Source of the DNA: Candidatus Magasanikiibacteriota bacterium
Lineage (GTDB): Bacteria; Patescibacteriota; Patescibacteriia; Magasanikbacterales; GWA2-37-8
Assembly (NCBI GenBank): GCA_023246715.1
Contig: JAHFHZ010000002.1
Coordinates: forward strand, 1 to 62,786
Reading direction: 5' to 3'
DNA: 62,786 nucleotides
The notes below the pieces were generated by a model. That model saw only the letters and a program-made list of their open reading frames with translations, searched no databases and was not told where the DNA came from. Both the position numbers and the translations under genes were made by a program. Below, piece after piece: positions 11,936-51,820 of this stretch. Each line of letters starts with the position of its first letter. Within the stretch, counting starts at the first letter, position 1.

Positions 11936-13186
11936 CTAGCGGCAGCGTTGATCGATTTCGTGGCGCACATTCTGAAGCGGAATCAATTCAGCCTCGCTCG
12001 CGGATCGTTCTTTGAACTCCGCAACGCCTTTTTCCAGGGTTCGCTTGGAAATCACCACGCGCAGCGGAAGCCCAAGCAAATCGGCATCGGCAAATTTTTC
12101 ACCAGCCGAAGCATTAGAACGATCATCATAGAGTACTTCGATTTTGGAACCAAGCAGTTGCTGATAAAGCTGTTCGGCCTCACGGAGCACTGCCTCATCA
12201 CTGCCAACCGCCACCAGGTGCAAGGCATACGGGGCTACGGAACGGGGCCAGATAATTCCTTTATCGTCGTTAAAAATTTCCACGAGCGTTCCCATTAAAC
12301 GTGAAACCCCGATGCCGTAACAACCCATTAAAATCGGCTGGAGAGCGCCGGATTCATCGGCGTATTTGAATTTGAACGCGTCGGTAAAGCGCGTTTTCAG
12401 ATCGAAGATGTTGCCAACCTCGATGGCTTTTACCGGGGTGAGGTTGGGATTTTGGCAGGTGGGGCAGAAATTATGTTCGTCGATAATTTCTTTATTTACG
12501 GCCACGCGGCATTTTGAGCACAAATAAACGGTGTCTTCGCCAATCTCGCAGAGAGCCTGGAATTCGTGAGAGTAACGACTGAACACCCCACCGGAGGCAT
12601 AGGTTAAAACCACCCGGTCACCCAGGCCGAGGCGCTCGTAGACTTTGAAATAGGCCGTTTGGACGGTTTCGTAATATTTTTTAAAATCTGTTTCGGTCGC
12701 ATGAAAGGAATATAAATCCTTCATGTTAAATTCGCGCCCACGGAGTAACCCAGATTTGGCGCGAGGTTCGTTGCGGAATTTGTTTTGAATCTGGTACACC
12801 GCAAGGGGCAAATCACGATACGAAAAAGCGTAAGTCTTTACCAGCGGGGTAATGACGTTTTCATGCGACTGATTAATGACCAATTTACTACCGCCGTGAC
12901 CAGTGAGGTGGAACAAAATATCGATGGCATCCTGGCCCGAGATGGCATAATTTTCTTCCTGAGTAAGGGTGGGCATGAGCACTTCGTTGGCGCCAAGCGC
13001 ATTCATTTCTTCACGGATGATGTTCTGAATTTTGGTCAACACGCGTAAACCGAGCGGCAAATAATTATATACTCCGGCCATTTGCTTGTTGATAAAGCCT
13101 CCTTTGGTAAGGAGTTCGGCGTTTTTGCTGTCGGCGTCGGCGGGAGCAGATTTGGTAGTTTTGGCAAAGATTCGGGAATAACGCAT
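11936..13186 (-). CDS. proS: Proline--tRNA ligase, minimal form lacking the INS editing domain
   Basis: Class II motif 2 (FRNEPRAKSGLLRGREFNMKD) and motif 3 (GCYGIGVSRL), with a bacterial-type N-terminus MRYSRIFAKTTK. The start is taken at the ATG at 13186. Confidence 0.88.
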   Translation of the reverse strand: MRYSRIFAKTTKSAPADADSKNAELLTKGGFINKQMAGVYNYLPLGLRVLTKIQNIIREEMNALGANEVLMPTLTQEENYAISGQDAIDILFHLTGHGGSKLVINQSHENVITPLVKTYAFSYRDLPLAVYQIQNKFRNEPRAKSGLLRGREFNMKDLYSFHATETDFKKYYETVQTAYFKVYERLGLGDRVVLTYASGGVFSRYSHEFQALCEIGEDTVYLCSKCRVAVNKEIIDEHNFCPTCQNPNLTPVKAIEVGNIFDLKTRFTDAFKFKYADESGALQPILMGCYGIGVSRLMGTLVEIFNDDKGIIWPRSVAPYALHLVAVGSDEAVLREAEQLYQQLLGSKIEVLYDDRSNASAGEKFADADLLGLPLRVVISKRTLEKGVAEFKERSASEAELIPLQNVRHEIDQRCR

Positions 13187-13300
13187 AGTATAAAATCTAG
13201 AATAATCTTTAATTCTCATGACGAGGCCGGATCAGTCCAGGGGATTGCCGCGTCGGCTTGCCCCGCCCCGGCGGGATAAACTCGCCTCCTCGCAATGACA

Positions 13301-14302
13301 CTATTTTTTTAGCGTGGTAATCGGCCGGCTCTGGGTTATAAAAAATTGGTTATTGGCAAAAGCCCATTCAATATCGCACGGGAATCCGTAATGCTGTTCA
13401 ATCTGGCAGCACAGTTTAGCCAGCTCTAACACTTGCGGAGCGGATAGTTTTTGCTTGGAGCCTTCGGCTTCGGAAAGCTCGATCCAGTGATTAATTTCCC
13501 CGTCTTTGAGCTGGCCCGCGCCATGCACGAGGTGTTTATTTTGCGTACTGACGTAGACATCCATCAGCTCCATTTTCTTTTTACTCACGATATAGCTATC
13601 GGGCGTAATCTGCCCGCTGACGATTGCTTCACCCAGGCCGAAACCCGCTTCGATGATGAGCTGATCGTAATCTTCGGTGACCGGGTGCACCGTAAAGCAG
13701 ATGCCCGAAATTTCGGACTGCACCATTTGCTGCACCACCACGGCTACCGAGACCTGCGTGTCGATCAGATTTTTTTCGTGGCGGTAAAAAATCGCTCGGG
13801 GAGTGAACAGCGAACTCCAGCATTTTTTAACCATCTCGGCCACGTTTTCGCGAGTGGTATTAAGATACGTTTCCAGCTCTCCCGCCCAGCTAGCGATTTC
13901 GGAATCTTCGGCCGTGGCGCTGGAGCGTACCGCCACGTGCTCGGCGCCCAGCTGGTCGAAGGCAACCAGAATTTCGGCGGTTAAATCCGCAGGCATCGCC
14001 CGGTCGTGAATCACATCGCGCAAAATATTGCTGGCGCGATCAACGGAATTCGTATCGGCCGGGTTAACTTCGGCCAAGCGCGCGGCAATTTCTTCTTTCA
14101 GTTCGGTCTCTTCGATAAAGCGATCAAAGGCACTGGCTAACACAATAAAACCCGGCGGAACACTAATTCCGGCCTGGGTCATTTCGCCAAGTGAAGCGCC
14201 TTTGCCCCCGGCGATAGCGACATCGGTTTTGGAAATATCTTTGAAAAATTTTAAATGAGGCATAACAGGGCTTAGCTTAGCACTGGGGATAAAAAGTTTC
14301 AA
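13301..14302 (-). CDS. Stand-alone PEP/pyruvate-binding (PPDK_N) ATP-grasp module of the PpsA family
   Basis: N-terminal DVAIAGGKGASLGEMTQAGISVPPGFIV and C-terminal FFITQSRPIT are the typical ends of the PpsA/PPDK nucleotide-binding domain. The ORF stops there (333 aa), with no swivel or TIM-barrel domain. Confidence 0.85.
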   Translation of the reverse strand: MKLFIPSAKLSPVMPHLKFFKDISKTDVAIAGGKGASLGEMTQAGISVPPGFIVLASAFDRFIEETELKEEIAARLAEVNPADTNSVDRASNILRDVIHDRAMPADLTAEILVAFDQLGAEHVAVRSSATAEDSEIASWAGELETYLNTTRENVAEMVKKCWSSLFTPRAIFYRHEKNLIDTQVSVAVVVQQMVQSEISGICFTVHPVTEDYDQLIIEAGFGLGEAIVSGQITPDSYIVSKKKMELMDVYVSTQNKHLVHGAGQLKDGEINHWIELSEAEGSKQKLSAPQVLELAKLCCQIEQHYGFPCDIEWAFANNQFFITQSRPITTLKK

Positions 14303-14319
14303 TCCTGGCTATAAAAAAA

Positions 14320-14535
14320 TTAATTTACCACTACGATTCCGTCATCACCATTCAATTCCACCATTTGCCCCTCGCGCACGTGTTCTAAAAAATTTTCCGG
14401 CAACCCGACAACTGCTGGTTTATTATTTTCGCGCGCGGTGATCGCGGCATGACTGGTAACCCCGCCGTGCACGACGATAACACCTTTAACCATTGCGGCT
14501 AAGGCAGCGCTCGGCTTTACCTTGTCCAAAACCAC
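14320..14535 (-). CDS. PEP-utilizer mobile (swivel) domain fragment, C-terminal half only; possible gene remnant
   Basis: 71-aa ORF containing GGVTSHAAITARENNKPAVVG. It lacks the upstream G-x-A-x-G...ILV...T-P half seen in the four full paralogs. Confidence 0.55.
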   Translation of the reverse strand: MVLDKVKPSAALAAMVKGVIVVHGGVTSHAAITARENNKPAVVGLPENFLEHVREGQMVELNGDDGIVVVN

Positions 14536-14540
14536 AAAGT

Positions 14541-14592
14541 GAAAGATGCTCTAGTTATCTTTAGAGTTAAAAAGCGCACTAGAGCATCTTTC
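14541..14592. repeat. Perfect 15-bp inverted repeat with a 22-nt loop
   Basis: gaaagatgctctagt (14541-14555) is the exact reverse complement of actagagcatctttc (14578-14592). It lies between the swivel fragment start and the high-GC cassette. Confidence 0.8.
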
Positions 14593-14655
14593 AACGGCTT
14601 GGTTAGGAAGTAAGGGTTGAATTCCCTTGAGCTGGCTAAGCAGACAGGAGCGTTC

Positions 14656-15270
14656 ATGAAGATCAGGTGGACTGTGATACCCCATGGCCGAAAGAAGGCG
14701 GTGCGGGACCTGGCCCCAGGCACCGACCCGAGCAATCCGCCCCTCACCGATGAGGCGCGGCGTGACGCGGCGACTCTTGCTGAGACGCTCGCCGAGCTGC
14801 ACGGGCGGCCGGACATCATTTTCGTGTCTACTCGCATTCGGGCCCAGCAGACGGCAGAGCGCGCCATCGAGCTCTTTGGCCGGCACGAGCTCGACGGCTG
14901 CCCGGTCGTGGCGATCAACCTGCTCGGACAGCCCGACAGCGGGGACCTCGACCGCAGCCACCCCCAGGCGGATGCCGACGGACTGGTGTGCTACGGGCAG
15001 CGGACGAACGACCCCCAGTGGCTCGATTGGACCCGTCAGGCCCGACGCCTGATGATCGGCATGATCGGGGAAATGTTCGAACCGCCCCGGCCGCTCCAGG
15101 CCTGGGTCTTCGGGCACCGCCCGACCGCTGGCGCCTTCCGCTGGCTCGCCACCAACGGGCCCAACCAGCTCCCGGCCGACGGCGAGCTGAAGGTCCTCGA
15201 CCCCTGTCTGCTGCCGTATCTCTTCTTCGCCGAGAGCGAGGTGGGGGGCCTGCGGCTCATCCCGCGCTAG
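14656..15270 (+). CDS. Histidine phosphatase superfamily protein (SixA/PGM branch) on a high-GC cassette
   Basis: Ordered blocks IRWTVIPHGRK, PLTDEARRDAATLAETL, IFVSTRIRAQQTAERA and VFGHRPT match the branch-1 histidine phosphatase layout. An AGGAG lies 7 nt upstream of the ATG at 14656. It is the only plus-strand gene in a 25-kb minus-strand run. Confidence 0.65.
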   Translation: MKIRWTVIPHGRKKAVRDLAPGTDPSNPPLTDEARRDAATLAETLAELHGRPDIIFVSTRIRAQQTAERAIELFGRHELDGCPVVAINLLGQPDSGDLDRSHPQADADGLVCYGQRTNDPQWLDWTRQARRLMIGMIGEMFEPPRPLQAWVFGHRPTAGAFRWLATNGPNQLPADGELKVLDPCLLPYLFFAESEVGGLRLIPR

Positions 15271-15322
15271 CCAGAGCCTGAAGAACGCCCTTCTCTACCA
15301 CTTCTGACCCTCAACGCGCACT

Positions 15323-15349
15323 GCCCTCCCGGAACTCTACCGGGAGGGC
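15323..15349 (+). terminator. GC-rich hairpin downstream of the phosphatase gene
   Basis: gccctcccgg / ccgggagggc form a 10-bp stem with a 7-nt loop, followed by ttctgcatttt. It also lies 10 nt past the stop of the minus-strand gene 15359-16453. Confidence 0.5.
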
Positions 15350-15358
15350 TTCTGCATT

Positions 15359-16453
15359 TTAAGCGGGAGTTAATTTTCTAATTGTGCCAGTGGCGGCATC
15401 AACTTCAACGAGTTCGCCATCTTTAAAAACATGCGTGGCGTGCTTGGTGCCAATTATGCAAGGCTTCTGCAACTCACGCGCGACAATAGCCGCGTGACAG
15501 AGTAATCCTCCTTCGTTGGTAACAAAAGCGGCCGCCCGCTTCATGATGGGCAAATAGCTGGGATCGGTCATTTGCGAAACAATTATTTCACCATCTTTAA
15601 AATTTTCCATATCCTGGCGGGCGCGGACAACACGCACATACCCCGTGACGAGACCAGGGAAAGCGGTTTGGCCTTTGAGCTCGCTCAGTCCTTCGAGTTC
15701 GTCGCCGGGGCTAGCCAATAGTTTTTGCTCTTCAATGATCCGAAGCGCTTGGTCACCAGCAGCCAACTCCACCTGCCCGATAGCGTACTGCCGTACATAC
15801 AAGGCGCGTTTACGCTCACGCAACATCGCCGGGCTTGGCAACACCGCGCCAGTGGTTATGTAGGCCGCCAGTTCACGCCCCAGCAAATAGCACAATTCCT
15901 CCCCAGTGTAAGCAGGTAATTTATTTTTTGCGAGCCAGGCAGTATAGCGCGGGATGAACTTCATTTCGCCGTCTTTATAAATTACCTCGCCGCGGCGACG
16001 AATTTTGGTAGCCCAGTCAATATATGCTTGCTGTATTTCTTTGGGCAACACGCCCACAAAATCAGCTGAATCCATTCCGGCATACGCAATCGGAAACAAT
16101 TCCTGGTACCAGCGGTAAAAATCCAAAAAAGTGTCTAGGCTAAAATTTGCATCATCCTGGTAAATGACCTCTTCATAGCGCGACACTTCGGCATCAAACC
16201 AATCAAAACTGGTTACCAAATTTACCTGGCCATTTTTTACTTTATTTAAAAACAGCGTGCTCACCCGTTCACGGTCCCCTATTGCCTGAAAATGAAAATA
16301 CACACCTTCTTTCACCACCGAAGGCAGCTCCACGAATGTTCCGCCGTAGGCTTCGTTTAAAATCGCCCCCGTCATCGCTTCAACCACCGAGGTAATACCA
16401 AGAATGGTATACTCCCGGCGATGACGTTCATATTTGATTTTGGACATATGCAA
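15359..16453 (-). CDS. Swivel-domain protein paralog C (unknown N-domain + C-terminal PEP-utilizer mobile domain)
   Basis: The C-terminal ~100 aa read LKGQTAFPGLVTG...IIVSQMTDPSYLPIMKRAAAFVTNEGGLLCHAAIVARELQKPCIIG. The N-terminal ~260 aa are unrecognised. Confidence 0.8.
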   Translation of the reverse strand: MHMSKIKYERHRREYTILGITSVVEAMTGAILNEAYGGTFVELPSVVKEGVYFHFQAIGDRERVSTLFLNKVKNGQVNLVTSFDWFDAEVSRYEEVIYQDDANFSLDTFLDFYRWYQELFPIAYAGMDSADFVGVLPKEIQQAYIDWATKIRRRGEVIYKDGEMKFIPRYTAWLAKNKLPAYTGEELCYLLGRELAAYITTGAVLPSPAMLRERKRALYVRQYAIGQVELAAGDQALRIIEEQKLLASPGDELEGLSELKGQTAFPGLVTGYVRVVRARQDMENFKDGEIIVSQMTDPSYLPIMKRAAAFVTNEGGLLCHAAIVARELQKPCIIGTKHATHVFKDGELVEVDAATGTIRKLTPA

Positions 16454-16457
16454 ATTG

Positions 16458-18002
16458 TTAAGACACTTTTCTAATTAGGCCTTTGGTCGCGTCAACTTCA
16501 ACTTGTTCTCCACTCACAAAAACGGCCATGGCTTTCTTGGCGCCCACAATGCAGGGAATACCCAGTTCGCGCGATACGATGGCGGCGTGACTGGTGACGC
16601 CGCCCTGCTCGGCCACCACGGCGGCCGCCTTTTTCATGAGTGGCACGAAATCCGGGGTGGTTTGATTGGTAATCAAAATCTCTCCGGCCTGAAATTGATG
16701 AAATTGGTCGCTGCCCAAAATAATCCGCGCGGTGCCCGTTACTTTGCCAGGCGAAGCAGTCATGCCTTTGAGTTCCTGCAGGCCGGAGAGATCGGGGAAA
16801 AAATTACTTAAATCAAGGTCTTTTAATTCATCGCGCAGGAAAATGGCATACCCTTGAGAGTCAAAAACAGCCAGGCAGCCGGCGCGGCGCTCGACGGTAA
16901 TATGTTGCCAGCGGGCAGGGTCTTGTAAAAATTCCTCAAGCTCGTTGAACATCACGTACTGAATCAGCTCGGGGTCAAACTGCACCAACTCGGCCAAGCG
17001 GCCCAGATAATTAATATTAAAGTGATTCAAACGAAGCACGGCCTGCTTGCGGCAATCTTGGATAAAAGTACAATCATCGGCGAATTGGACAAAAGATCGC
17101 AGCAGTGGGGTGGCGGATATTTTTTGAAACACATTTTCTTTGGCAATAACCGCCCGATGTAAGCGCTCTTGTTCTTCGGCGTATTTATGTTCAGCATCAC
17201 TCAGATTGTTTATTTCTGCGCGGACCTGTTTGGCTGTTTTGGGAAGGGCTTTGAGATAGTTATTTTCTACCCAATAATACTCCCGGACAATTTGCTCAAT
17301 CCCCGCGGCAATGTCTACCCCCTGATTCTGGCGGCAGCGCTCCGCAAGCAAACGCAACGCGTAGGAATTAACAAAGCTGCGGTGAGTGGGGGCGCGCAAT
17401 ATTTCAACATCATCTGGCGCCAACGCTTGGCCAGCGTATTTATTGACGTGATTTTTAAACCAATCGTCGTCGGAAAAACTTAATAAACAATCTACGGTAT
17501 AGCCCATCCCCTGCTCCCCAGCAGCGTTAATTAACTCGAGGAGATGTTGAACGATTTGCGCCGGAGTAAAATCTTCGAGCCGCAGCTCTTCTTCGGCGCG
17601 GGCGCGCTCATCAAACACCGCAAAACCCTGTTGATACATTTGATACAATTTTTTACCGAACTCAAGATCCTTTTCGAGAGCGGCAAATAGCTGAGCGCGC
17701 GTGGCCTGCATTTCTTTTACCGACCACTGCCAATCAAATTCGCGATCAACAACAAAGTTTTGAAACGACATCCCGTGCGGCATGCTACCAGGAATCTTTT
17801 GAGGCGCTCGAAAAATAGCGAAGTATTCTTGCACAAAAATCGGCATCATGTATGAGCCATAGTGTTTGCTGAAAAAACCCTCGTGAAGGTGTTTTTCCAA
17901 ATACGCGCGCAGACGTGTTCGATCGGCTGGCGTAGACGCGGGGATCATAAGGGGAATTTTTATTCTAAAACTTCGGGAAACAAGGTATTGGCTATGTCCC
18001 AC
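16458..18002 (-). CDS. Swivel-domain protein paralog A (unknown N-domain + C-terminal PEP-utilizer mobile domain)
   Basis: The C-terminus reads LKGMTASPGKVTG...ILITNQTTPDFVPLMKKAAAVVAEQGGVTSHAAIVSRELGIPCIVG. The N-domain carries YYWVENNY. An alternative start is possible at the internal MIPAS. Confidence 0.8.
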   Translation of the reverse strand: MGHSQYLVSRSFRIKIPLMIPASTPADRTRLRAYLEKHLHEGFFSKHYGSYMMPIFVQEYFAIFRAPQKIPGSMPHGMSFQNFVVDREFDWQWSVKEMQATRAQLFAALEKDLEFGKKLYQMYQQGFAVFDERARAEEELRLEDFTPAQIVQHLLELINAAGEQGMGYTVDCLLSFSDDDWFKNHVNKYAGQALAPDDVEILRAPTHRSFVNSYALRLLAERCRQNQGVDIAAGIEQIVREYYWVENNYLKALPKTAKQVRAEINNLSDAEHKYAEEQERLHRAVIAKENVFQKISATPLLRSFVQFADDCTFIQDCRKQAVLRLNHFNINYLGRLAELVQFDPELIQYVMFNELEEFLQDPARWQHITVERRAGCLAVFDSQGYAIFLRDELKDLDLSNFFPDLSGLQELKGMTASPGKVTGTARIILGSDQFHQFQAGEILITNQTTPDFVPLMKKAAAVVAEQGGVTSHAAIVSRELGIPCIVGAKKAMAVFVSGEQVEVDATKGLIRKVS

Positions 18003-18040
18003 AGATACTAAACACTACTTGAGCCAGTCATAATAAATAT

Positions 18041-19477
18041 TTAAAGCACATGTACTCTGCCCGTTTCAGCATCCAAGAGCACCCGGTCGCCGCTTTGCAA
18101 TACTTCGGTGGCAATTTTGGTTCCGATAATACAAGGTTTGCCCATTTCACGGCTAATAATGGCCGCATGGCAGGTCAGGCCGCCCTCGTCGGTAATAAAT
18201 CCGGCGGCGCGCTGCATCGCTGGCAAAAATTCGGGCCTGGTCATGGAGGCGACCAATATTTCACCGTTGGCCACAGTGGCAATATCGCTGACTGTTCGAC
18301 AGACCCGCACGACACCTTCTACCCGCCCCTTACTTGCGATAATACCTTTTAATTCCGACTGCGGAGCAATTACGGGTACTTGCAATGCTTGCACAATTTG
18401 CCAATAGGCGTCGCCCGCGAAAATGGTCGTTTCATTTGGCAGGGCATACCAGGCTGAACCGGCCAAACGCTCCTTGACGGACGCGTGGAAAGATTCGTCC
18501 GCAAGACGTTCTGGGGTCAATTCCTCTGGTAAACAATAGCGCAATTCCGGCAGACTCCACCCGGCTGCTCCAGCCAGGGGTTCGAGAACCGTGTCTAGCA
18601 GGGAAATTACTTGAAAAATATTTTTCTTACGCTCGTCTTGCCAACGGAACGACGTTTCGATAGTTTGAATAATAAAACGTTCTTCAGTGCCCAAGCGTAA
18701 CTTGGCCATCAATAGTTCTTTTACCTCGGGCGCGACCAAGGCATTCACAGGTTCAACCGTAATAGCTTCGGAGCGAGCCAAAATTTCGGCATCAGTAAAA
18801 TTTTTTGCTCCGGTGTAATTATTTTCGATCCAGTAGAATTGTTCTTTGAATTGATCAAGCAAGGATTGTTGTTCGGGACCGCCACTCCTTAAGCGAAAAA
18901 GTAATTGGAGCGCCCGAAAAATAAACGAAGGATAGAGCGGCGAACACAGGATGCTAAAATCCAGTTCATTGTAGACTTTCCGAGCTTGAAGCAATTCGCG
19001 TAAACGAATTTCGCTGACAAACGTAATTCCTTCCAGGGCATGGCCATAATTGGCAGCAAACGGCATAACTGCGGCCACCGCTCGCGCCGAACGCGCAAGG
19101 GAGCTGATTTTATTATCTGAAATAACCCCAAGCAGATCCTGGGCATTTTTAAATTTAGCATCAAACAAAGCCTGTGAGCCTTTTTCAAGCTCGAGCAATT
19201 TTTCAAGGTTATTCACTCTTTCATAATACGATTCGCCAATCTTTTGCCAGTCGGATTGATCGTAATACATTCGCGCATGGCCACCGCTGAACAGATAAAA
19301 AAAGTGCGTGTAATTAGCAAACACAGGCTCGTGCATCCAACCCGATAAACTAGCCGCGGGGTGCAGGTATAAAGGAGTCCCGTTGAACCCTTGGATGTTC
19401 CATTGATGTGATTTAATAATTTGTACTAGTTCTGATTGAGACAGCATACACGAGCAACAGCGTCTGATTGAAGGCAT
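18041..19477 (-). CDS. Swivel-domain protein paralog B (unknown N-domain + C-terminal PEP-utilizer mobile domain)
   Basis: The C-terminus reads LKGIIASKGRVEG...ILVASMTRPEFLPAMQRAAGFITDEGGLTCHAAIISREMGKPCIIG. The N-domain carries FYWIENNY. Confidence 0.8.
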   Translation of the reverse strand: MPSIRRCCSCMLSQSELVQIIKSHQWNIQGFNGTPLYLHPAASLSGWMHEPVFANYTHFFYLFSGGHARMYYDQSDWQKIGESYYERVNNLEKLLELEKGSQALFDAKFKNAQDLLGVISDNKISSLARSARAVAAVMPFAANYGHALEGITFVSEIRLRELLQARKVYNELDFSILCSPLYPSFIFRALQLLFRLRSGGPEQQSLLDQFKEQFYWIENNYTGAKNFTDAEILARSEAITVEPVNALVAPEVKELLMAKLRLGTEERFIIQTIETSFRWQDERKKNIFQVISLLDTVLEPLAGAAGWSLPELRYCLPEELTPERLADESFHASVKERLAGSAWYALPNETTIFAGDAYWQIVQALQVPVIAPQSELKGIIASKGRVEGVVRVCRTVSDIATVANGEILVASMTRPEFLPAMQRAAGFITDEGGLTCHAAIISREMGKPCIIGTKIATEVLQSGDRVLLDAETGRVHVL

Positions 19478-19480
19478 TTT

Positions 19481-21751
19481 TTAGGAGAGCTTTTCAACTG
19501 CTCCCTGAGTGATTACTTTTGGCGGCACGGCGGGGCGAGGAACGGAAGGCGGGGCTGTTGGGGTTGGCGCCAGAGCAGTCGGGACAGGAGCAATTGGTTC
19601 TACGGGCGCGGTGGGCGCGGTTACTAGCTGGGCAGTGAGTTCTGTTTTTGGAAAAATATTTAATGGCGGGGGCTTGGCCAAACCCCCTGAAGCGTTTTCG
19701 GGTCGCGGAGAAGTCGGAGAAATGGTTGGCGCGGTGGATGCTGCTGGCCGGGGGCCACTTGTTTGCGAGCTAACATTTCGATCGGCAACCGGTTTTTGTT
19801 GCTGGCGGGGTGGTTGACTTTGCGAGGAAGAATTTCCGCTACCCGAAGAGCGAGATTGGCCGCCGCGACCGCCGCCCTGGTTGCCACGACCATCACCACG
19901 ATTTGATTTATCCTTCTTTTGGCCAGGATTGTTTCCAATACCCGGATGCCTGGTAGGCTCGTTTTTCGGCAAAATACTAGAGAGTGAGATTCCCTTTTGT
20001 TCGGCATCCACCAATAGTACTTTTTCTCCGCCTGAGGGGGGTAAACCACCTGTCTTTTTGTTACGACGAGAGTCTGATGAGCCTTCGCGGCGAGACGAGC
20101 CTGAACTGGAAAATTGACCGCTGGAACTGCTTTGCGGGCGGGGTGGTTGACTGTTACCGGAACTTGTTTGCGCTTGGCGGGGCGGGGTTAGGCTCACCAA
20201 CCGAGGCGTGGGAGCCTCCACAACAGGGGCAGGGGTCGCCGGAGCGGCTGGGCGGGGCGCCGGGGTGGCAACAACGGACGGGGGGGCAGGCGGCGCGGGA
20301 GTTGTGGCAGATGGTGGCAGTGCACCCTGCGCGGCAGAGGCGGCATCTTCGGCGGCGGCAGTATTAACGACGCCAGACAATTCAGCGGTTTCTTCATCAA
20401 GGGCATCAAGCGCGTCTTCGGCCGAGAGTATCATACCACTCCAACGAGCAATTTTATCTTCGATTTTATCGCGGCTGACCGCGTAGCGCTCGCGCGATAC
20501 TTTAATTACGCGCTCCAAGCTGCCGGTGGCACTGCCGATTGGGGGCATGGTGAGGGCGCTGAACGGGCGCGAGGCCACGCCGTCGATCATTAATTTTAAA
20601 TAGGTATGAAACTTTGGCAGGTTGACCAAATCTTCTTCCACGAACGTGGGCGCAAATTCTTTGGCCAGGATTTCGGCATCGGTGGAACCAACCCGGAACA
20701 CCACCATGGTGCCGACGTTACCGATTACGGCGGCCAGTACTTTTTCGTCGAGCTGTTCCATGTACTGATGGGCCATAATCAAATCCAGGCGATATTTGCG
20801 CGCTTCAGAAAGGATGCCGGCAAAACTTTCGGTGGCAAAGTTCTGGAATTCATCGACATACAGAAAAAAATCATTACGGAGCGGCTCGGGCGTGTCGACG
20901 CGTTCCATTGCCGAGAGCTGAATTTTGGTAATTAACATGCCCCCCAGTAGGCGGGAATTATCTTCACCGATACGGCCTTTTGATAAATTGATAATAAAAA
21001 TTTTCTTGGTGTCCATTATTTCACGAATGTTGATGCGTGATTTTACCTGGGCGACAATGTTACGGATAATTGAAGCCGACAAGAATTGCCCGATTTTATT
21101 TTGGATCGGGGCCACGGCTTCCTGGCGAAACTTGTCGCTATAGCTGGCGAATTCCGTTTGCCAGAAAGCTTTCACTACCGGGTCTTTAAGGTTGGCGACC
21201 ACGCGTTTGCGATACTCAGCGTCGGCTAAAAGACGGTTAATACCAAGCAAAGTGGTACCGGGAAAATCAAGCAAGGCCAGAATGGTGTTGTTGAGAATGT
21301 ATTCCATACGGGCGCTCCAGACATCGGGCCAGATTTTTTTGAACACGCCCATGAGGCCAGAAGCCACCAAATGCCGGTATTCAGGGTTGATGGATTCCAG
21401 GATATTAAACCCGATCGGATAATCAATGTCGCAGGGATTGAAATAAACTACATCGTTGATGCGGTTCGGCGGGATAAAGTCCAGAATTTTTTCGGCAAAG
21501 TCACCGTGCGGATCGACCAAGCCGATACCATGCCCGCCATATACATCGTTAAGCACCATGTTTTCAAGGACGGTGGTTTTACCCATGCCGGTTTTGCCGA
21601 CCACGTACATATGGCGACGGCGGTCATCGAGTTTAATGCCAAAACGCCGGTTATGATTCCGGTAATTGGTGAGCCCGAAAAAGTTGATCGGATTACTGTT
21701 CGGCGCGGGCGTGGGAATGGGTTGTGGGGCACTGGAGAGAGAATCGATCAT
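19481..21751 (-). CDS. TraD/VirD4-like (type IV coupling protein / HerA-FtsK superfamily) P-loop ATPase with a long disordered C-terminal tail
   Basis: Walker A VVGKTGMGKTT and Walker B FFLYVDEFQNF are present, and no N-terminal TM helices are visible. Residues from about 445 to 756 are Pro/Ala/Ser/Gly/Gln-rich with an RGG stretch (GDGRGNQGGGRGGQ). Confidence 0.72.
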   Translation of the reverse strand: MIDSLSSAPQPIPTPAPNSNPINFFGLTNYRNHNRRFGIKLDDRRRHMYVVGKTGMGKTTVLENMVLNDVYGGHGIGLVDPHGDFAEKILDFIPPNRINDVVYFNPCDIDYPIGFNILESINPEYRHLVASGLMGVFKKIWPDVWSARMEYILNNTILALLDFPGTTLLGINRLLADAEYRKRVVANLKDPVVKAFWQTEFASYSDKFRQEAVAPIQNKIGQFLSASIIRNIVAQVKSRINIREIMDTKKIFIINLSKGRIGEDNSRLLGGMLITKIQLSAMERVDTPEPLRNDFFLYVDEFQNFATESFAGILSEARKYRLDLIMAHQYMEQLDEKVLAAVIGNVGTMVVFRVGSTDAEILAKEFAPTFVEEDLVNLPKFHTYLKLMIDGVASRPFSALTMPPIGSATGSLERVIKVSRERYAVSRDKIEDKIARWSGMILSAEDALDALDEETAELSGVVNTAAAEDAASAAQGALPPSATTPAPPAPPSVVATPAPRPAAPATPAPVVEAPTPRLVSLTPPRQAQTSSGNSQPPRPQSSSSGQFSSSGSSRREGSSDSRRNKKTGGLPPSGGEKVLLVDAEQKGISLSSILPKNEPTRHPGIGNNPGQKKDKSNRGDGRGNQGGGRGGQSRSSGSGNSSSQSQPPRQQQKPVADRNVSSQTSGPRPAASTAPTISPTSPRPENASGGLAKPPPLNIFPKTELTAQLVTAPTAPVEPIAPVPTALAPTPTAPPSVPRPAVPPKVITQGAVEKLS

Positions 21752-44146: not shown

Positions 44147-44965
44147 TTAGGTTTTTTTCACCACTATATGCAGGTTGGGCGATGGTACGCGGCAAAGCAA
44201 GAATGATTCTAAAGACACCAAAGCGTTGACCATGCGGCGGCCCAACAGCCCGATACCCCCCGGACCGACGGGCAATTGTTGAAAAAATTCTTCGTTATTG
44301 AGCTGAGTTTGATTCAGCGCGCGGGCGGAGCGGGCCATGAGCATAAACACGGCAATGCCGAGCAATTGACCCAGTACATGTTCACTATAACGCCGACTCA
44401 TAACGGCATACCCCGCTTCGCTACATAAATTATTCACCGCGGCACGTGAAAAATATTGAATATGACCGGCAAAGCGGCGGGTAAGATTTTTTTTCAAACC
44501 CACCATATCTAACCAATGCCAAAACGACAGGGAATCCCCCTCGCAGGGAACGAAACAATATAAAATCCCGCCGGGCTTAAGGACGCGCCGAATTTCGGCC
44601 AAGAACGCGGCCGGATTATCGACGTGCTCTAAGACATCAAACACTACCACCGCGTCAAAAAATTCAGAATTATAGGGCAGCTTTTCGTCGTTGGCCAATT
44701 GGTAGCTGACCCCGTCATTATACCAGCGGGCGGCGGTTAACGCCGGAGCGCTAATATCGCACCCGTGGCATTGCCAACCGGGGCGTAATTGCTGTAGGGC
44801 GCGAATAAACTGGCCGGCACCACAACCGACTTCCAGCACACTGGCATTGTCGGGCAAACCTCGCAGCGCCCGCAGGCACTCGCGCAGCCGAATGCTGGTG
44901 GGGCTCCCCATCGACAGCGAAGCAGTGCCACGCCCCCAGAGTGTTTTGGAATAATCAAAATCCAT
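44147..44965 (-). CDS. Class I SAM-dependent methyltransferase
   Basis: Motif I VLEVGCGAGQF and post-I/II blocks (AVVVFDVLEHV, LKPGGILY). Confidence 0.8.
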   Translation of the reverse strand: MDFDYSKTLWGRGTASLSMGSPTSIRLRECLRALRGLPDNASVLEVGCGAGQFIRALQQLRPGWQCHGCDISAPALTAARWYNDGVSYQLANDEKLPYNSEFFDAVVVFDVLEHVDNPAAFLAEIRRVLKPGGILYCFVPCEGDSLSFWHWLDMVGLKKNLTRRFAGHIQYFSRAAVNNLCSEAGYAVMSRRYSEHVLGQLLGIAVFMLMARSARALNQTQLNNEEFFQQLPVGPGGIGLLGRRMVNALVSLESFLLCRVPSPNLHIVVKKT

Positions 44966-44967
44966 AG

Positions 44968-46089
44968 CTAAAACGTTTTATATGTTTGTTCTAAGACCTC
45001 CAAATGTCTTTCCCAACTAAAATTACGGATTTTTTCTTGCGCGCGAGTGGCGTACTGTTGCCGCTCCGGCAGGCTTAACATTAAAGCATCTTCGAGCGCT
45101 GCGGCAAACTGGGTGGCCGAAGCGCTTGGCTCAACCAACCAACCAGTAACGCCCTGCTCCACTCGGCCATGGTAGACCGGCAAATCCATGGCTACCACCG
45201 GGCAGCCGGTGCTCAACGCTTCACTCACCACCAACGAGAATGATTCAGTAAGCGAGGGAACAGCTACGCAGGTAGCCAAACGATACAGTTGAGCGAGGCG
45301 GCCCGGATCGGTGACGGCACCCACGAATTTAACCCGCCCGGCAATACCGAGTTGGATGGCTAATTTTTGATATTGAGATAGCTGGTATCCCCCGCCGACG
45401 ATTACCAATACAGTCTGAGTATTTTCTAACAGCGCGAAAGCGTGAAGCAAAAAATCTAACCGTTTTAACGGGATAGGGTTACCAACAAAAAGTATTACTG
45501 GCTGGTCGATAGGCGCAATACCGGCAACGGCCCAATTCACACTACCGGGTTTGAATAGTTCATTATTTACCCCGGGAGGTAGAGTGACAATACGTTCCGG
45601 GGCAATTAGGGGCCTAAAACGGCTGCCTGCAAAATGTTCTTGGCTAACCGTGAACACAGCTTTGGCACGCGTTAAGAGCAATCGCGCCCACAGGGTATCG
45701 GAAATCACTTGCACGGCCCGTTTGAACAACCCAATCGGAGCGGCATCCATGTGGTACGTAACAACGTATTTTATTTTAAAAATCAAAGCGGCGCTCCAAA
45801 ACGGTTTTTCGGCCCCATACCAGGGATAGTGCAAATGAACAAGATCAAACGAGCGTAGCAACCAGAATAATTGCGGTACCAGGCCGGCATCTCCCCACCG
45901 GGGCAGACCACGCAACCGCCGAATGGTTACGCCAGCAACAATTTCTTGCGCCGCTTGGCCATGGTAGCGCAAGGTAAAAATAGTTACGTCATGGCCATTC
46001 TTGACCAGGCCCATCGCTTCGTGCCAGGCAACCATGCCCATTCCGCCGGGGCGAGGCGGCAAAGTGGCGACAACATGCGCAATCTTCAT
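44968..46089 (-). CDS. Glycosyltransferase family 4 (GT-B, group 1)
   Basis: 373-aa ORF with an N-terminal GT4 domain and a C-terminal E-x7-E-like region (PSLTESFSLVVSEALSTGCPVV). Confidence 0.85.
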   Translation of the reverse strand: MKIAHVVATLPPRPGGMGMVAWHEAMGLVKNGHDVTIFTLRYHGQAAQEIVAGVTIRRLRGLPRWGDAGLVPQLFWLLRSFDLVHLHYPWYGAEKPFWSAALIFKIKYVVTYHMDAAPIGLFKRAVQVISDTLWARLLLTRAKAVFTVSQEHFAGSRFRPLIAPERIVTLPPGVNNELFKPGSVNWAVAGIAPIDQPVILFVGNPIPLKRLDFLLHAFALLENTQTVLVIVGGGYQLSQYQKLAIQLGIAGRVKFVGAVTDPGRLAQLYRLATCVAVPSLTESFSLVVSEALSTGCPVVAMDLPVYHGRVEQGVTGWLVEPSASATQFAAALEDALMLSLPERQQYATRAQEKIRNFSWERHLEVLEQTYKTF

Positions 46090-46459: not shown

Positions 46460-47932
46460 TTAACTAAGCTTCCTGACAATGCCTTGCTCAGCGTCGACTT
46501 CAATACTATCTCCATCTTTTAAAACCTGGGTGGCAATTTTAGTGCCAATAATGCAGGGCTTTTGCAACTCCCGAGAAACTAAAGCCGCGTGGCTGAGCAA
46601 TCCGCCAATATCGGTTACAATCGCCGCCGCCTTTTTCATTAGGGGGATAAAATCAGGACTGGTCATCGGGGTAACAAGTATATCGCCTTCATTCATTTTA
46701 TCCAAATTTTCTGGAACAATAAAAATTTTTGCCTTACCTCTCGCCTTGCCCGGGGCAGCCACGGTACCGCGAAACTCTCGCACCGCCGCCGTACTTTTGG
46801 CAGGGATAAAGGTATTGATTAATTCCTGAACTTCAAGCGGATTGTCGATAATATTTTCTTCACCGGCACTCATTAGCACGCAATAATTTTTATTACGATA
46901 AGCGACTGATTCTCGGGACAGAACGGTTTTGTTATCGAGAGCAGCGCAAATTTCGGTAGGGGTGAAATAAAGTAACTCTCTATAGGATAAACCGAAGCGG
47001 CTGGCAATGGCGGCCAACAATGGACGCGCTTGAAACGCCAAAATATCAAACATCTCGGGGGTATATTGTCTTAACCAGGCTATTTCAGCGCTCTGTTTAA
47101 TGACAAAATCCAGCTCTTTGGGGAGGTGGTCGGGATACTCACGAGGAGTTTTTTGTTCAAGGAAGGGCAGTTCTGACAAGAATTTTTCTATTGAGAGCGG
47201 TTCGCCCCAGAAATGATGCGTGCCTATCCATTGATATTTTTCGACATGGCGTTGAACGGCGGCAAACAAGTCTGGATCGGCCTTTATTCTCGTTAATCCG
47301 ATGGAAGTCGAATTGTTAAGCTCTGGTAACAAATTTTTTTCTTCCAGTTGCCGTTTTATACTTAACGCTTCAGCATGCTCTTGAATCATGATGGTCGTTT
47401 GCTTTGGAATGGAGGCAGCAACATCGGTGGCCGAGCAGCCTAATTCGCGGGCTTTAACCAAAATTATTTCTCCCAGATGGTCTGATAAAATCAGTCCGGA
47501 ATACCAAGGAACCATCAGGCGTGTTAGCGCGGCGATACAAGCTTTGAATAACGGCAAATCAATCGCGGCGCATTTTTGCAGTTGCCTGATCAATTTTTGA
47601 TTTTCAGCAAAAATCTGCTTGGCTGAAACGGTTAAATTAGTAAAAAAATCCTCATCTTTGGCCTGGCAAGCACGCTCTAATTCTGCTTGTAATAGTTCTA
47701 AATCGCCTCGGTGCACTAAATGATGCCCGTTAATTAAAAAAATCCGCCCGTCTAACTTGGGAAGCCCAAGTTGTAAAGCGGTTTTTTCTTCGTACCACCG
47801 CGCCCAAAACCAAGCGGAAAAAGGAGGCTGTTCCCATTGACCGTAATAAAACCAATCTTCAGGCCGAAGGTTGAGTTTGTACAGGATTCGAACTCTGGGA
47901 GAATAGTCATTTTGAATTGCGTTAATGCTCAT
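46460..47932 (-). CDS. Swivel-domain protein paralog D (unknown N-domain + C-terminal PEP-utilizer mobile domain)
   Basis: The C-terminus reads FRGTVAAPGKARG...ILVTPMTSPDFIPLMKKAAAIVTDIGGLLSHAALVSRELQKPCIIG. The N-domain block KYQWIGTHHFWGEP aligns by eye with YWVENNY in paralogs A and B. Confidence 0.8.
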   Translation of the reverse strand: MSINAIQNDYSPRVRILYKLNLRPEDWFYYGQWEQPPFSAWFWARWYEEKTALQLGLPKLDGRIFLINGHHLVHRGDLELLQAELERACQAKDEDFFTNLTVSAKQIFAENQKLIRQLQKCAAIDLPLFKACIAALTRLMVPWYSGLILSDHLGEIILVKARELGCSATDVAASIPKQTTIMIQEHAEALSIKRQLEEKNLLPELNNSTSIGLTRIKADPDLFAAVQRHVEKYQWIGTHHFWGEPLSIEKFLSELPFLEQKTPREYPDHLPKELDFVIKQSAEIAWLRQYTPEMFDILAFQARPLLAAIASRFGLSYRELLYFTPTEICAALDNKTVLSRESVAYRNKNYCVLMSAGEENIIDNPLEVQELINTFIPAKSTAAVREFRGTVAAPGKARGKAKIFIVPENLDKMNEGDILVTPMTSPDFIPLMKKAAAIVTDIGGLLSHAALVSRELQKPCIIGTKIATQVLKDGDSIEVDAEQGIVRKLS

Positions 47933-47940
47933 ACAGTGTC

Positions 47941-48609
47941 TTATTTTTCGCGCAAAAAAATACCCAGGAATAAATCACGAATGATTTTTAAACCACCCGT
48001 AAGCCCTTGGCCGTATTCATGATACACTACTTTCACTGGAACTTCCGCAAAACGCAGCTGTTGGCGTTTTAGTTGGGTGGTAATTTCGGAGTTGTGGGCC
48101 ATACCATCCTGAGTAATCATAATTGCCATGACGGCTCGCCGATTTAAGACACGAAAACCATTATGCACGTCGGTTAAGGCCGTGCCGGTGAGGCACCGGT
48201 TAAGCACCCGAGCACATGGAAAAAAAACTCTTCGTTTGAGCCAAGGAATTTGAGAACGCTGATCCAAAAAACGCGAACCAATGACAGCGTCCAGGTTTTG
48301 TTGTTTTAATTTTTCGATTGCTGGGGCAATATCAGCGGCATCAAATTGGTCATCTGCATCGAAATGCACGATTAATTCGGCGCCATTCCCAAGCGCGAAC
48401 TCGTTGCCCGTTTGCAACGCCGCGCCCTGGCCACGATTGCATTCATGCACTATCACATCGGCTCCGGCAGCCCGAGCAACCTCGGCAGTAGCATCGGTTG
48501 ATCCATCGTCAACTACCACAATTCTGGCAAAACCCCCTGCCCGCAAGGCTTCAATTACCTGGCCAACTCGCCTTGCCTCGTTATAAGCCGGTAATACCAC
48601 CCAAATCAT
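47941..48609 (-). CDS. Glycosyltransferase family 2 (polyprenyl-phosphate sugar synthase-like)
   Basis: VVLPAYNEA, VVVDDGSTD and DADDQ (DxD) motifs. The start is at the internal ATG (MIWVVLPAYNE) because the longer ORF overlaps the upstream gene. Confidence 0.85.
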   Translation of the reverse strand: MIWVVLPAYNEARRVGQVIEALRAGGFARIVVVDDGSTDATAEVARAAGADVIVHECNRGQGAALQTGNEFALGNGAELIVHFDADDQFDAADIAPAIEKLKQQNLDAVIGSRFLDQRSQIPWLKRRVFFPCARVLNRCLTGTALTDVHNGFRVLNRRAVMAIMITQDGMAHNSEITTQLKRQQLRFAEVPVKVVYHEYGQGLTGGLKIIRDLFLGIFLREK

Positions 48610-48622
48610 ATGTTGGTGGACG

Positions 48623-49672
48623 TTATTTTTGGCTAGTGTTTGCACTATTAAAAAGAAGCGCTTCTTTGTTAGCAATAGCGTAGTCGATAGTATGCTGCAG
48701 ACCTTCGGAAAGGCGCACCAACGGGAACCAGCCGAGGGCATCTTTGGCTTTATGCAAATCCGGCATACCCTTACGCGACAAGAATACTAGCGGGTCGGCG
48801 AACACCAGTTTAGAGGAAGACCCTGTCATTTGAATAACCATGTTGGCGATCGACTCAAGGTTAAGGATTTCGTCGCCGCCCAGGTTGATATTTTTTATTT
48901 CCGGATCGGCGTTCATCAGTCGGACCAAACCATCAACCATATCGGAAACATAACACAACGAAGTGGTAAGCTCATTGCCGGTGCCATAGAGCACGATATC
49001 TTTGTTATCCAACGCGCTCATGATGAAATCAATCACTGGTTGGCCCTCGAACAACCGCATATGCGGGCCATAGGTGGTGAATACGCGCGCAATTTTACCA
49101 TCGAGCCCATACACCTGACGGTACGTTTCAACGCAGGTTTCGGCAAACCGCTTCCCTTCGTCGTAGCAAGCGCGCGGCGACAAATGATTCACAATCCCCT
49201 GGTCTGACTCATTGAAGACTACTTTGGTATCACTGGCTTCACCATAGACCACCGAACTGGAAGTGAACACATATTTAGCGCGATACTTTACCGCCAAATC
49301 CAATGTGTTGATCATGGCCGAAGAATTGGCCCAGAGCGATTTGAGTTTTAATTTTTCAAAGTCCTTGGGGCTGGTAGGGCAAGCCAAATGGTAAATTTCC
49401 TGGACACCCTGAAATTTGAGTTTAAATTTATCCAGTTCATCGAATGATTCCAGGTCAATGGGCTTATTAACATCGTAATTGATAAATTCAAAATCTGGAT
49501 ACTGCAACAGGTGGTTGATATTTTGGGAGTGAGAATTTGAAAAATCGTCCAAGCAGATTACCTTGGCCTCGCGCAGCAGGCGTTCGCAGAGATGCGAACC
49601 GATAAATCCTGCACCACCCGTAACCAACACGTTCTTTTTTTCAAAAATAGGAGCGTCCATAATAAGTACCAT
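48623..49672 (-). CDS. NAD-dependent sugar-nucleotide decarboxylase/epimerase, UDP-glucuronate decarboxylase (UXS)-like
   Basis: VLVTGGAGFIGSHL Rossmann motif and the catalytic YDEGKRFAE block typical of UDP-xylose synthases. An alternative ATG lies at 49660. Confidence 0.75.
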   Translation of the reverse strand: MVLIMDAPIFEKKNVLVTGGAGFIGSHLCERLLREAKVICLDDFSNSHSQNINHLLQYPDFEFINYDVNKPIDLESFDELDKFKLKFQGVQEIYHLACPTSPKDFEKLKLKSLWANSSAMINTLDLAVKYRAKYVFTSSSVVYGEASDTKVVFNESDQGIVNHLSPRACYDEGKRFAETCVETYRQVYGLDGKIARVFTTYGPHMRLFEGQPVIDFIMSALDNKDIVLYGTGNELTTSLCYVSDMVDGLVRLMNADPEIKNINLGGDEILNLESIANMVIQMTGSSSKLVFADPLVFLSRKGMPDLHKAKDALGWFPLVRLSEGLQHTIDYAIANKEALLFNSANTSQK

Positions 49673-49743
49673 ATTAAGCCTAAAATTGACTTAAGTATAG
49701 CAATTCCGGCAGTAAAAGGCAACTACATAATGAAGGGGGTTGG

Positions 49744-51735: not shown

Positions 51736-51820
51736 AGTATTGCCTGACTGCCAAGTCTAGGCAGTATACTCTGGAGCGGTTGAAAAACCAAGCAAGTAAC
51801 AATTAATTAAGACATAAAAA

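Follow-up and report, generated by a model that had tools for sequence, protein, structure and literature searches.

We predict that a gene array at positions 13301-19477 of the window probably encodes a small-molecule dikinase system of the rifampin phosphotransferase (RPH) type that has two components in a one-to-many ratio. The window is the whole 62,786-nucleotide stretch of contig JAHFHZ010000002.1 (assembly GCA_023246715.1) from a Candidatus Magasanikiibacteriota bacterium; its closest homologs carry the name Candidatus Magasanikbacteria, a lineage of the candidate phyla radiation (CPR, or Patescibacteria). In order of transcription on the minus strand, the locus comprises a TrwB/TraG-like ATPase gene, three genes of 478, 514 and 364 aa, open reading frames (ORFs) of 71 and 333 aa, and the gene for prolyl-tRNA synthetase (ProRS). 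The three genes encode proteins with an N-terminal domain (N-domain) followed by a phosphohistidine swivel domain, which we call carriers, and the 333-aa ORF encodes a stand-alone ATP-grasp protein, here W333; retrieved loci and family representatives are designated by L and P numbers, respectively. An initial annotation of this DNA had proposed that one ATP-grasp charger serves several carrier subunits. Comparative genomics and structure prediction support this proposal, which fits the RPH-like N-domains of the carriers, the co-occurrence of the two gene types on the same strand, the fusions between them, and the identity of W333 to the fused ATP-grasp domains. The domain identities, fold homology, conserved residues, gene linkage and fusions reported below are direct observations.

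Carrier N-domains are homologous to the substrate-binding domain of RPH

The N-terminal regions of the carriers had initially been described as matching nothing recognizable. This description does not hold, as structure prediction and a profile of 102 sequences both match them to RPH. The AlphaFold2 model of the 496-aa product of the second carrier gene, computed with 16 orthologs and paralogs as input, reached a mean predicted local distance difference test (pLDDT) score of 91 and a predicted template modeling (TM) score of 0.88. When this model was compared with the Protein Data Bank (PDB) by Foldseek, the top six matches were all to RPH-Lm, with E values of 4e-15 to 8e-13 and the whole model aligned. 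The query-normalized TM-score was approximately 0.50 for four of these entries and 0.34-0.36 for the two entries of the G527Y mutant, and every other match was confined to the swivel domain with a TM-score of at most 0.20. The model of the 364-aa protein (pLDDT 89.5) gave the same result, with RPH-Lm in the top six positions (E 3e-12) over about 280 of 362 residues. RPH-Lm is thus the only PDB structure that matches either carrier model beyond the swivel, and it heads the list for both in the Foldseek comparison that the initial annotation had suggested. The same comparison shows that the N-domains have the RPH fold rather than being decayed halves of an ATP-grasp or TIM-barrel domain, and the initial reading of the locus survives on this point. 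Based on the structure models and the profile, we conclude that the N-domains are homologous to the substrate-binding domain of RPH.

This homology surfaced only through structure prediction combined with Foldseek and through the 102-sequence profile; searches of the PDB with the N-domain sequence, either singly or as a 10-sequence profile, returned only noise. A word-indexed homolog search recovered only 11-15 orthologs and failed to find the paralog encoded in the window itself, and an exhaustive HMMER search with an N-domain profile was therefore used. This search identified 1,734 clusters at 50% identity, 605 of them at E values of 1e-10 or lower.

All 102 family representatives in an alignment have K301 and the catalytic His, and at least 90% of them conserve D298, R300, W226, Y231, E336 and R354. 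The most conserved part of the N-domain is the block matching the phosphotransfer residues of RPH. In the HMMER alignment of the 102-sequence profile to RPH-Lm, which extends over residues 458-866, the columns of the family motif w-Q-D-x-R-K coincide one by one with RPH Y665-R666-E667-Y-P-K670. Rifampin phosphorylation is lost in the R666A and E667A variants of RPH, whose ATP half-reaction persists, and K670 is part of the hydrogen-bond network of R666 and E667 (PMC4844700). The retention of the acidic residue and the Lys, together with an Arg displaced by three positions, supports the presence of a conserved phosphotransfer site as judged from the alignment, but does not prove it.

Carrier paralogs and their conserved motifs

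All three carriers end in a swivel domain with its His block, as had been noted initially (Pfam PF00391, E values around 1e-26). The phospho-accepting His is kept in every swivel copy of the array, and the Thr two residues ahead of it is retained in the first and second carriers. The first carrier (478 aa; 18041-19477, minus strand) matches the N-domain profile and is composed of an RPH-like substrate-binding domain at approximately residues 1-370 and a swivel at residues 374-477 (PF00391 at 404-473, E 2e-26), with the His437 codon at 18167-18169, the motif YWIENNY at 18815-18835 and WQDERK at 18626-18643. The second (514-aa ORF; 16458-18002, minus strand) has the same arrangement of RPH-like domain and swivel (PF00391 at 437-508, E 2e-26); its start is probably M19 at 17948, which gives the 496-aa product (P0001). 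Its His472 codon lies at 16587-16589, and the motifs YWVENNY and IQDCRK lie at 17256-17276 and 17046-17063, respectively. The third is a short form (364-aa ORF, represented by the 362-aa P0165; 15359-16453, minus strand) in which a shortened RPH-like domain without the YYWxENNY block precedes the swivel (PF00391 at 285-356, E 4e-26; His320 codon at 15494-15496).

The shared FYWIENNY/YYWVENNY, basic and EL.Y...EL blocks described previously are present. The accompanying claim that the three N-terminal regions are related needs qualification. The N-domains of the 478- and 514-aa proteins are homologous by BLASTP (E 2e-5 for the N-domains alone, 1.7e-32 for the full-length proteins), whereas BLASTP detected no similarity between the N-domain of the 364-aa protein and those of its two paralogs. 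The connection emerges instead from hhalign, which aligns residues 163-360 of the 364-aa protein, including about 95 residues upstream of the swivel, to the family of the second paralog, and from Foldseek. The order of secondary-structure elements in the short form is that of the long form, minus about 130 residues, and its N-domain is a shortened form of that in the longer carriers.

The carrier paralogs appear, from their sequences, to be anciently diverged, because the 514-aa protein is 43-58% identical to its orthologs in other genomes but only about 25-30% identical to its neighboring paralogs. A 359-aa ortholog of the short form (P0166) is publicly annotated as "Phosphoenolpyruvate synthase" and contains neither an ATP-grasp nor a TIM-barrel domain. 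This annotation is wrong, since the third domain is RPH-like and there is no TIM barrel.

The ATP-grasp protein and its natural fusions with carriers

W333 (13301-14302, minus strand) matches the PPDK_N family PF01326 over profile positions 3-313 of 328 (E 1e-93) and contains no other Pfam domain, in agreement with its initial description as a PPDK_N-only protein. Its homologs start at about M14 (coordinate 14263). Its PDB matches are phosphoenolpyruvate (PEP) synthase, RPH's ATP-grasp domain, and HpeI (9GOJ, E 7.5e-52), and five stand-alone ATP-grasp orthologs share the motifs GGKGxxL and VRSSAxxED without exception. The statement that the window encodes no TIM-barrel partner is borne out: PF02896, the PEP/pyruvate TIM barrel, was found in none of 43 window ORFs scanned, which included the six ORFs of the array and every non-overlapped ORF of at least 250 aa.

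Relatives of W333 occur naturally fused to carriers. P0043, P0091 and P0104 have the order grasp-N-domain-swivel, which is the domain order of RPH. P0018 (1,297 aa) has two N-domain-swivel units after the grasp domain, and P0044 (1,836 aa), an uninterrupted ORF in L013, has three. Proteins with two N-domain-swivel units and no grasp domain are also found among the family representatives. Two further swivel-bearing genes follow P0044 in L013, encoding a 450-aa N-domain-swivel carrier and a protein of 817 aa that has two swivels. The fused grasp domains of P0104, P0018, P0044 and P0024 share 53-58% identity with W333, and those of P0043 and P0091 share 38-44%.

Co-occurrence and distribution of ATP-grasp genes and carrier arrays

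Gene linkage was assessed in a sample anchored on the grasp gene. A metagenome scan with the ATP-grasp protein alone yielded 509 relatives, and the best 80 loci were fetched and annotated with our own hidden Markov models (HMMs); 79 loci, with a median length of 10.8 kb, contained a full-size grasp gene. This gene was stand-alone in 74 loci and fused in five. At least one full-size carrier was present in the available DNA of 46 of the 79 loci, and in 31 the distance from the grasp gene to a carrier was no more than 150 nt. Every one of the 106 carriers, which number up to six per locus, shared the strand of the grasp gene. Among the 28 loci of at least 15 kb, 23 contained carriers. Most sufficiently long grasp-anchored loci therefore hold carriers on the same strand, and the concern raised in the initial annotation that the two gene types might not co-occur in related genomes is not realized.

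Stand-alone ATP-grasp genes and co-directional arrays of one to eight carriers adjoin each other across many CPR and DPANN genomes. For example, in the Magasanikbacteria genome GCA_001004885.1 (L015/L016), a TrwB-like gene is followed by eight carriers with a gene for a haloacid dehalogenase (HAD)-type hydrolase, by His_Phos_1 genes on the opposite strand, and by a stand-alone ATP-grasp gene whose product is 70% identical to W333. Other relatives have seven, four and three carriers in a row. Arrays were found in Komeilibacteria, Saccharibacteria, other Patescibacteria and one Woesearchaeota archaeon. A three-carrier array orthologous to those of Magasanikbacteria is also present in L006 (CAYJXK010000001.1), which is labeled "uncultured Gammaproteobacteria bacterium"; this contig probably represents a mis-binned or mislabeled metagenome-assembled genome. 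In L001, two paralogs resembling nicotinate phosphoribosyltransferase (NAPRTase) and a methyltransferase are encoded between the carrier array and its ATP-grasp gene (15957-18869), and this arrangement is a possible clue to a salvage-type substrate.

A fourth carrier paralog in a glycosyltransferase cluster

A further full-length carrier of 490 aa is encoded 27 kb from the array (46460-47932, minus strand; PF00391, E 3e-25; His448 codon at 46589-46591). Its N-domain matches the broad-family HMM and is divergent: WLRQYTPE replaces wQDxRK, and the segment R-Q-Y-T-P-E is more similar to RPH. It is 24% identical over 381 aa to an array member of L001, and a metagenome scan for its close relatives found none. 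The neighboring genes (44147-46089 and 47941-53194) form an operon-like cluster with it and encode glycosyltransferases of families GT2 and GT4, an NAD-dependent epimerase, a methyltransferase and a Bac_transf priming sugar transferase. This genomic context hints that the acceptor of the 490-aa paralog is a sugar or glycan intermediate. Where the initial annotation allowed for small-molecule or glycan acceptors, the glycan option is suggested solely by the surroundings of this fourth paralog.

Phosphatase, hydrolase and stand-alone swivel genes associated with the arrays

The five array genes listed initially are confirmed, but the list omitted the fourth paralog and a plus-strand gene for a histidine phosphatase-like protein (14617-15270, 217-aa ORF), which matches the histidine phosphatase superfamily model PF00300 above the gathering score (E 1.8e-6) and likely starts at M14 (14656). 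This gene lies in a GC-rich island (14536-15358) with a GC content of 0.64, compared to 0.50 for the window. In an alignment, the His, the second Arg and the second His do not differ between the window's protein and nine positional counterparts; where the RHG motif begins with Arg, the window's protein has Pro. In many loci, the interval separating the carriers from the ATP-grasp gene contains genes, mostly on the opposite strand, for proteins of 170-240 aa with the RHG...R...H pattern (L016, L055, L063 with two copies, L095, L039, L080, L028, L064 and L023), and longer His_Phos_1-like genes of about 300 codons occur in L087, L064 and L095. The small phosphatases are too divergent for BLASTP to connect them across groups. 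Their profile matches structures of PhoE, TIGAR, SixA and PGAM; matches to SixA models are weak and were obtained for three of ten small phosphatases.

In at least six independent loci, the GC content at third codon positions (GC3) of the small phosphatase gene is 20-50 points above that of the flanking genes. GC3 is 0.84 in the window, where neighboring genes have values of 0.51-0.58. The corresponding values for phosphatase and neighbor are 0.95 and 0.67 in L016 (16428-17093), 0.72 and 0.20 in L055 (8991-9704), 0.86 and 0.61 in L095 (16467-17087), and 0.74 and 0.49 in L080 (9285-9842); the phosphatase gene of L039 (9033-9695) also belongs to this GC3-rich set. Repeated horizontal acquisition, a mobile cassette and compositional constraint are candidate explanations. 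The recurrence of this kind of gene at an equivalent position in many loci led us to reject both random insertion of foreign DNA and a chimeric assembly as the source of the GC-rich patch. HAD hydrolases, about 200 aa long, also recur, in L015, L020, L021, L025 and L064.

The 71-aa ORF (14320-14535, minus strand; His codon at 14449-14451) had been described as a swivel fragment. It does match PF00391 in part (profile positions 19-72, E 3e-14), with an in-frame stop directly upstream; it is, however, probably a truncated copy of a stand-alone swivel rather than a simple carrier remnant. Over all 71 residues it is 55% identical to a complete 110-aa stand-alone swivel ORF in L024 (1610-1942) that precedes an ATP-grasp gene by 122 nt, and the two ORFs have the motif ARENNKPAVVGLPE in common. 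Because the window's ORF lacks about 34 N-terminal residues of its L024 counterpart and abuts the GC-rich island, its sequence suggests that it is probably an N-terminally truncated, non-functional copy of a stand-alone swivel mini-protein. An origin as the remnant of a fourth N-domain-swivel carrier was considered and rejected, its nearest relative being the stand-alone swivel ORF. L024 has a second complete swivel-only ORF (790-1086, 98 aa), also with ARENNKPAVVGLPE and likewise upstream of the ATP-grasp gene, and swivel-only ORFs of 111-112 aa are present in L045 and L091. Such stand-alone swivel ORFs may encode free phosphocarrier proteins.

Neighboring genes

The TrwB/TraG-like ATPase gene (type IV coupling protein or HerA-FtsK type; 19481-21751, minus strand) is located just upstream of the array, separated from it by a 3-nt gap, and its product has a Pro/Ser/Gly-rich C-terminal tail of about 350 aa. 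It is syntenic in the related Magasanikbacteria genome (L015/L016:1-765). The bacterial-type ProRS gene (11936-13219) follows the array. A ProRS gene of the archaeal type (ProRS-C_1; 15388-16842) also follows the array in L013, unlike in other loci; L013, which has a low GC content, is probably an archaeal locus, and the position of ProRS next to both arrays is possibly a coincidence. The surrounding genes of the window encode housekeeping functions of a small genome, namely ProRS, ThiI, MetRS, DnaB, ClpB, MurJ and LepA. PADLOC returned no defense-system match for any kinase component of the locus.

Comparison with known dikinases

Split RPH-like dikinases are established in PpsAB, CreHI and HpeHI. 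HpeHI has been demonstrated biochemically to be a two-component dikinase in which HpeI is the ATP-grasp subunit and HpeH combines an RPH-like substrate-binding domain with a swivel (PMC12167813). The locus described here resembles HpeHI in its separate ATP-grasp subunit, in a second subunit consisting of an RPH-like substrate-binding domain and a C-terminal swivel His, and in the adjacency of the genes. By analogy, its chemistry would convert ATP and an acceptor to AMP, inorganic phosphate (Pi) and phospho-acceptor through a phosphohistidine (His~P). The split itself, for which the initial annotation had pointed to phenylphosphate synthase, is established more widely than that. For the one-to-many array, the initial impression that it had not been described holds in the literature searched, where no description of these CPR and DPANN carrier arrays was found, an outcome that does not prove that none exists. 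A literature match to swivel and ATP-grasp domains in NAD-ADPr systems was judged irrelevant to the arrays.

Several features distinguish the arrays from PpsAB, CreHI and HpeHI. These systems pair one carrier with one ATP-grasp subunit, whereas here there are three to eight carrier genes per ATP-grasp gene: three, plus one distant, in the window, eight in L015 and up to six in metagenomic loci. The carriers are about 480 aa long, some 100 aa shorter than the proteins of approximately 600 aa in the known systems. Their hosts are CPR bacteria and DPANN archaea rather than degraders of aromatic compounds, and phosphatase genes are recurrent partners, while no PpsC-like third subunit is present. 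Members of the HpeH/CreH/PpsA clade are about 45% identical to one another, and the N-domain profile showed no relation of this type in PDB or sequence searches. Matches of the NCBIfam PRK08296 models to the carriers are confined to the swivel, the final 105 or so residues. We take these models, which describe proteins of about 600 aa with a C-terminal swivel, to represent the PpsA-alpha/HpeH-type group. On this assumption about the models and their swivel-only match, the carriers are not members of the HpeH/CreH/PpsA sequence clade.

The system belongs, by fold and profile, to the wider RPH superfamily, whose exact R-E...K block it retains only in part. RPH-Lm (PDB 5FBS, 5FBT, 5FBU and 5HV1) is the only solved structure that matches the carriers over their full length, and the fused relatives show the grasp, N-domain, swivel order of the RPH/PRK06241 "PEP synthase-like" superfamily (PMC4844700). 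Unlike RPH-Lm, the window encodes the components as separate polypeptides, sequence identity is approximately 14-22%, and the rifampin-binding motifs are unrecognizable. The grasp and swivel domains are also close to those of PpsA and PPDK (8A8E, with E values of 1e-68 and 9e-26, respectively), and the Thr ahead of the swivel His in the first and second carriers is a further common feature; the difference lies in the third domain, which is RPH-like, with no PEP/pyruvate TIM barrel among the window ORFs scanned.

Plant glucan, water dikinase (GWD) phosphorylates a glycan hydroxyl via a His intermediate and has a PPDK_N-type nucleotide-binding domain. It is a single polypeptide in the order carbohydrate-binding module, His domain, ATP domain, and is not known to have an RPH-like domain. 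GWD offers a conceptual parallel for the 490-aa paralog in the glycosyltransferase cluster; this parallel does not imply homology beyond the common modules.

Proposed mechanism and alternative explanations

By analogy with RPH and HpeHI, W333 would bind ATP and pass its beta-phosphoryl group to a docked carrier at the swivel His, with release of AMP and Pi. The swivel would then swing back to the carrier's own N-domain, where the wQDxRK block, aligned with RPH R666-E667-x-x-K670, would position His~P for transfer to the hydroxyl of a bound acceptor. We infer from the same analogy that one charger is shared among the carriers and that each anciently diverged paralog would act on an acceptor of its own. 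The histidine phosphatase and HAD proteins would reset His~P or dephosphorylate the products. A broader version of this model, which we put forward tentatively and regard as rather doubtful, is a three-part hub found throughout CPR and DPANN lineages, in which one charger, up to eight exchangeable, substrate-specific carriers, sometimes fused three at a time behind a grasp domain, and a dedicated, compositionally foreign (GC3-rich) phosphatase acting directly on the carrier His~P would irreversibly trap or activate scavenged host metabolites or sugars, replacing the phosphotransferase system (PTS) and absent conventional kinases.

Some observations weigh against a shared charger with RPH-type catalysis. 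The position of RPH R666 is occupied by Gln in the main family, a difference from RPH-Lm, with a conserved Arg three residues later, and the catalytic geometry of the Q-D-x-R-K block is not proven. Neither the 364-aa form nor the 490-aa paralog shows a QDxRK block; the 490-aa paralog has R-Q-Y-T-P-E at this location, and the 364-aa form cannot be aligned there. No carrier is found nearby in five of the 28 ATP-grasp loci that reach 15 kb or more, and arrays without an ATP-grasp gene within 10 kb were found on the P0005 and P0007 contigs and in L004-L006, L008-L010 and L012. In addition, HpeH on its own can move phosphate from one substrate to another (PMC12167813), and a carrier may thus not always depend on an ATP-grasp partner. 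The last two points are the ones that would favor carriers acting independently of the neighboring ATP-grasp protein, as transphosphorylases or with another donor, with adjacency being historical. The strict co-orientation of all 106 carriers with the grasp gene, their frequent direct adjacency to it, and fusion events that have repeatedly and independently joined the grasp domain to single, double or triple carrier units make this very unlikely in our assessment.

An expanded RPH-like "resistome", in which the same architecture inactivates antibiotics or toxins and guards episymbiotic cells against metabolites of the host or community, would be consistent with RPH being the sole solved homolog of the whole carrier, with the description of the superfamily as small-molecule dikinases of which some act on antibiotics (Stogios et al. 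2016, PMC4844700), with the counting of rph-like matches in CPR resistome surveys (PMC8651080), and with a variable copy number (three to eight) that suits a detoxification repertoire. We nevertheless consider this role unlikely, as the rifampin-contacting motifs are not conserved and only the C-terminal part of the domain aligns in sequence, the paralogs are ancient instead of fast-diversifying (one-to-one orthologs in different genomes are 43-58% identical), one paralog lies within an operon-like glycan-biosynthesis cluster, and the co-encoded phosphatases would reverse an inactivating phosphorylation. It is also highly improbable that the carriers are in general ligand sensors or phosphorelay proteins in which the swivel His~P is the signal and the phosphatase-like protein resets it, as SixA does for HPt and NPr. 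Two fusions, a response-regulator receiver domain between the two N-domain-swivel units of P0036 (1103 aa) and an N-terminal HTH_3 DNA-binding domain in P0042 (589 aa), hint at regulatory roles for some family members, and the recurrence of small histidine phosphatase genes in arrays, with their weak SixA-model matches, points in the same direction. However, such regulatory fusions are rare among the 1,734 clusters, the conservation of the counterpart of the RPH phosphotransfer block above the rest of the N-domain points to catalysis on a bound acceptor, and the phosphatase profile matches PhoE, TIGAR and PGAM besides SixA. There is next to no chance, in our assessment, that the genes are remnants of a decaying ppsA or ppdK (a pseudogenized PEP synthase) and serve no function of their own. 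The public naming of orthologs such as P0166 and the truncation of the 71-aa ORF might suggest decay, but the ORFs are intact and of full length with orthologs in many genomes, the catalytic His and other motifs are conserved, and the confidently predicted structures contradict this reading, the N-domains having the RPH fold and not that of a TIM barrel or ATP-grasp domain.

Significance

The new elements described here are the one-to-many array, the CPR/DPANN clade of carriers, the multi-unit fusions and the recurrent phosphatase partner. Where genes of this family are labeled "phosphoenolpyruvate synthase", CPR and DPANN organisms may be assigned, in metabolic reconstructions, a gluconeogenic step that they do not possess. 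The family is large (approximately 1,700 clusters at 50% identity) and uncharacterized, and its motif set, W..NY and QDxRK, could be used for substrate discovery. The fusions of a grasp domain with two and three carrier units are ready-made natural constructs that bear on the modular design. If the proposed system is correct, a shared charger with interchangeable carriers would represent a modularity that has not been described among swivel-domain dikinases. Up to eight or nine genes belong to the carrier family in genomes of about 1 Mb, an investment which implies that the phosphorylation reactions involved are important to these ultra-small symbionts.

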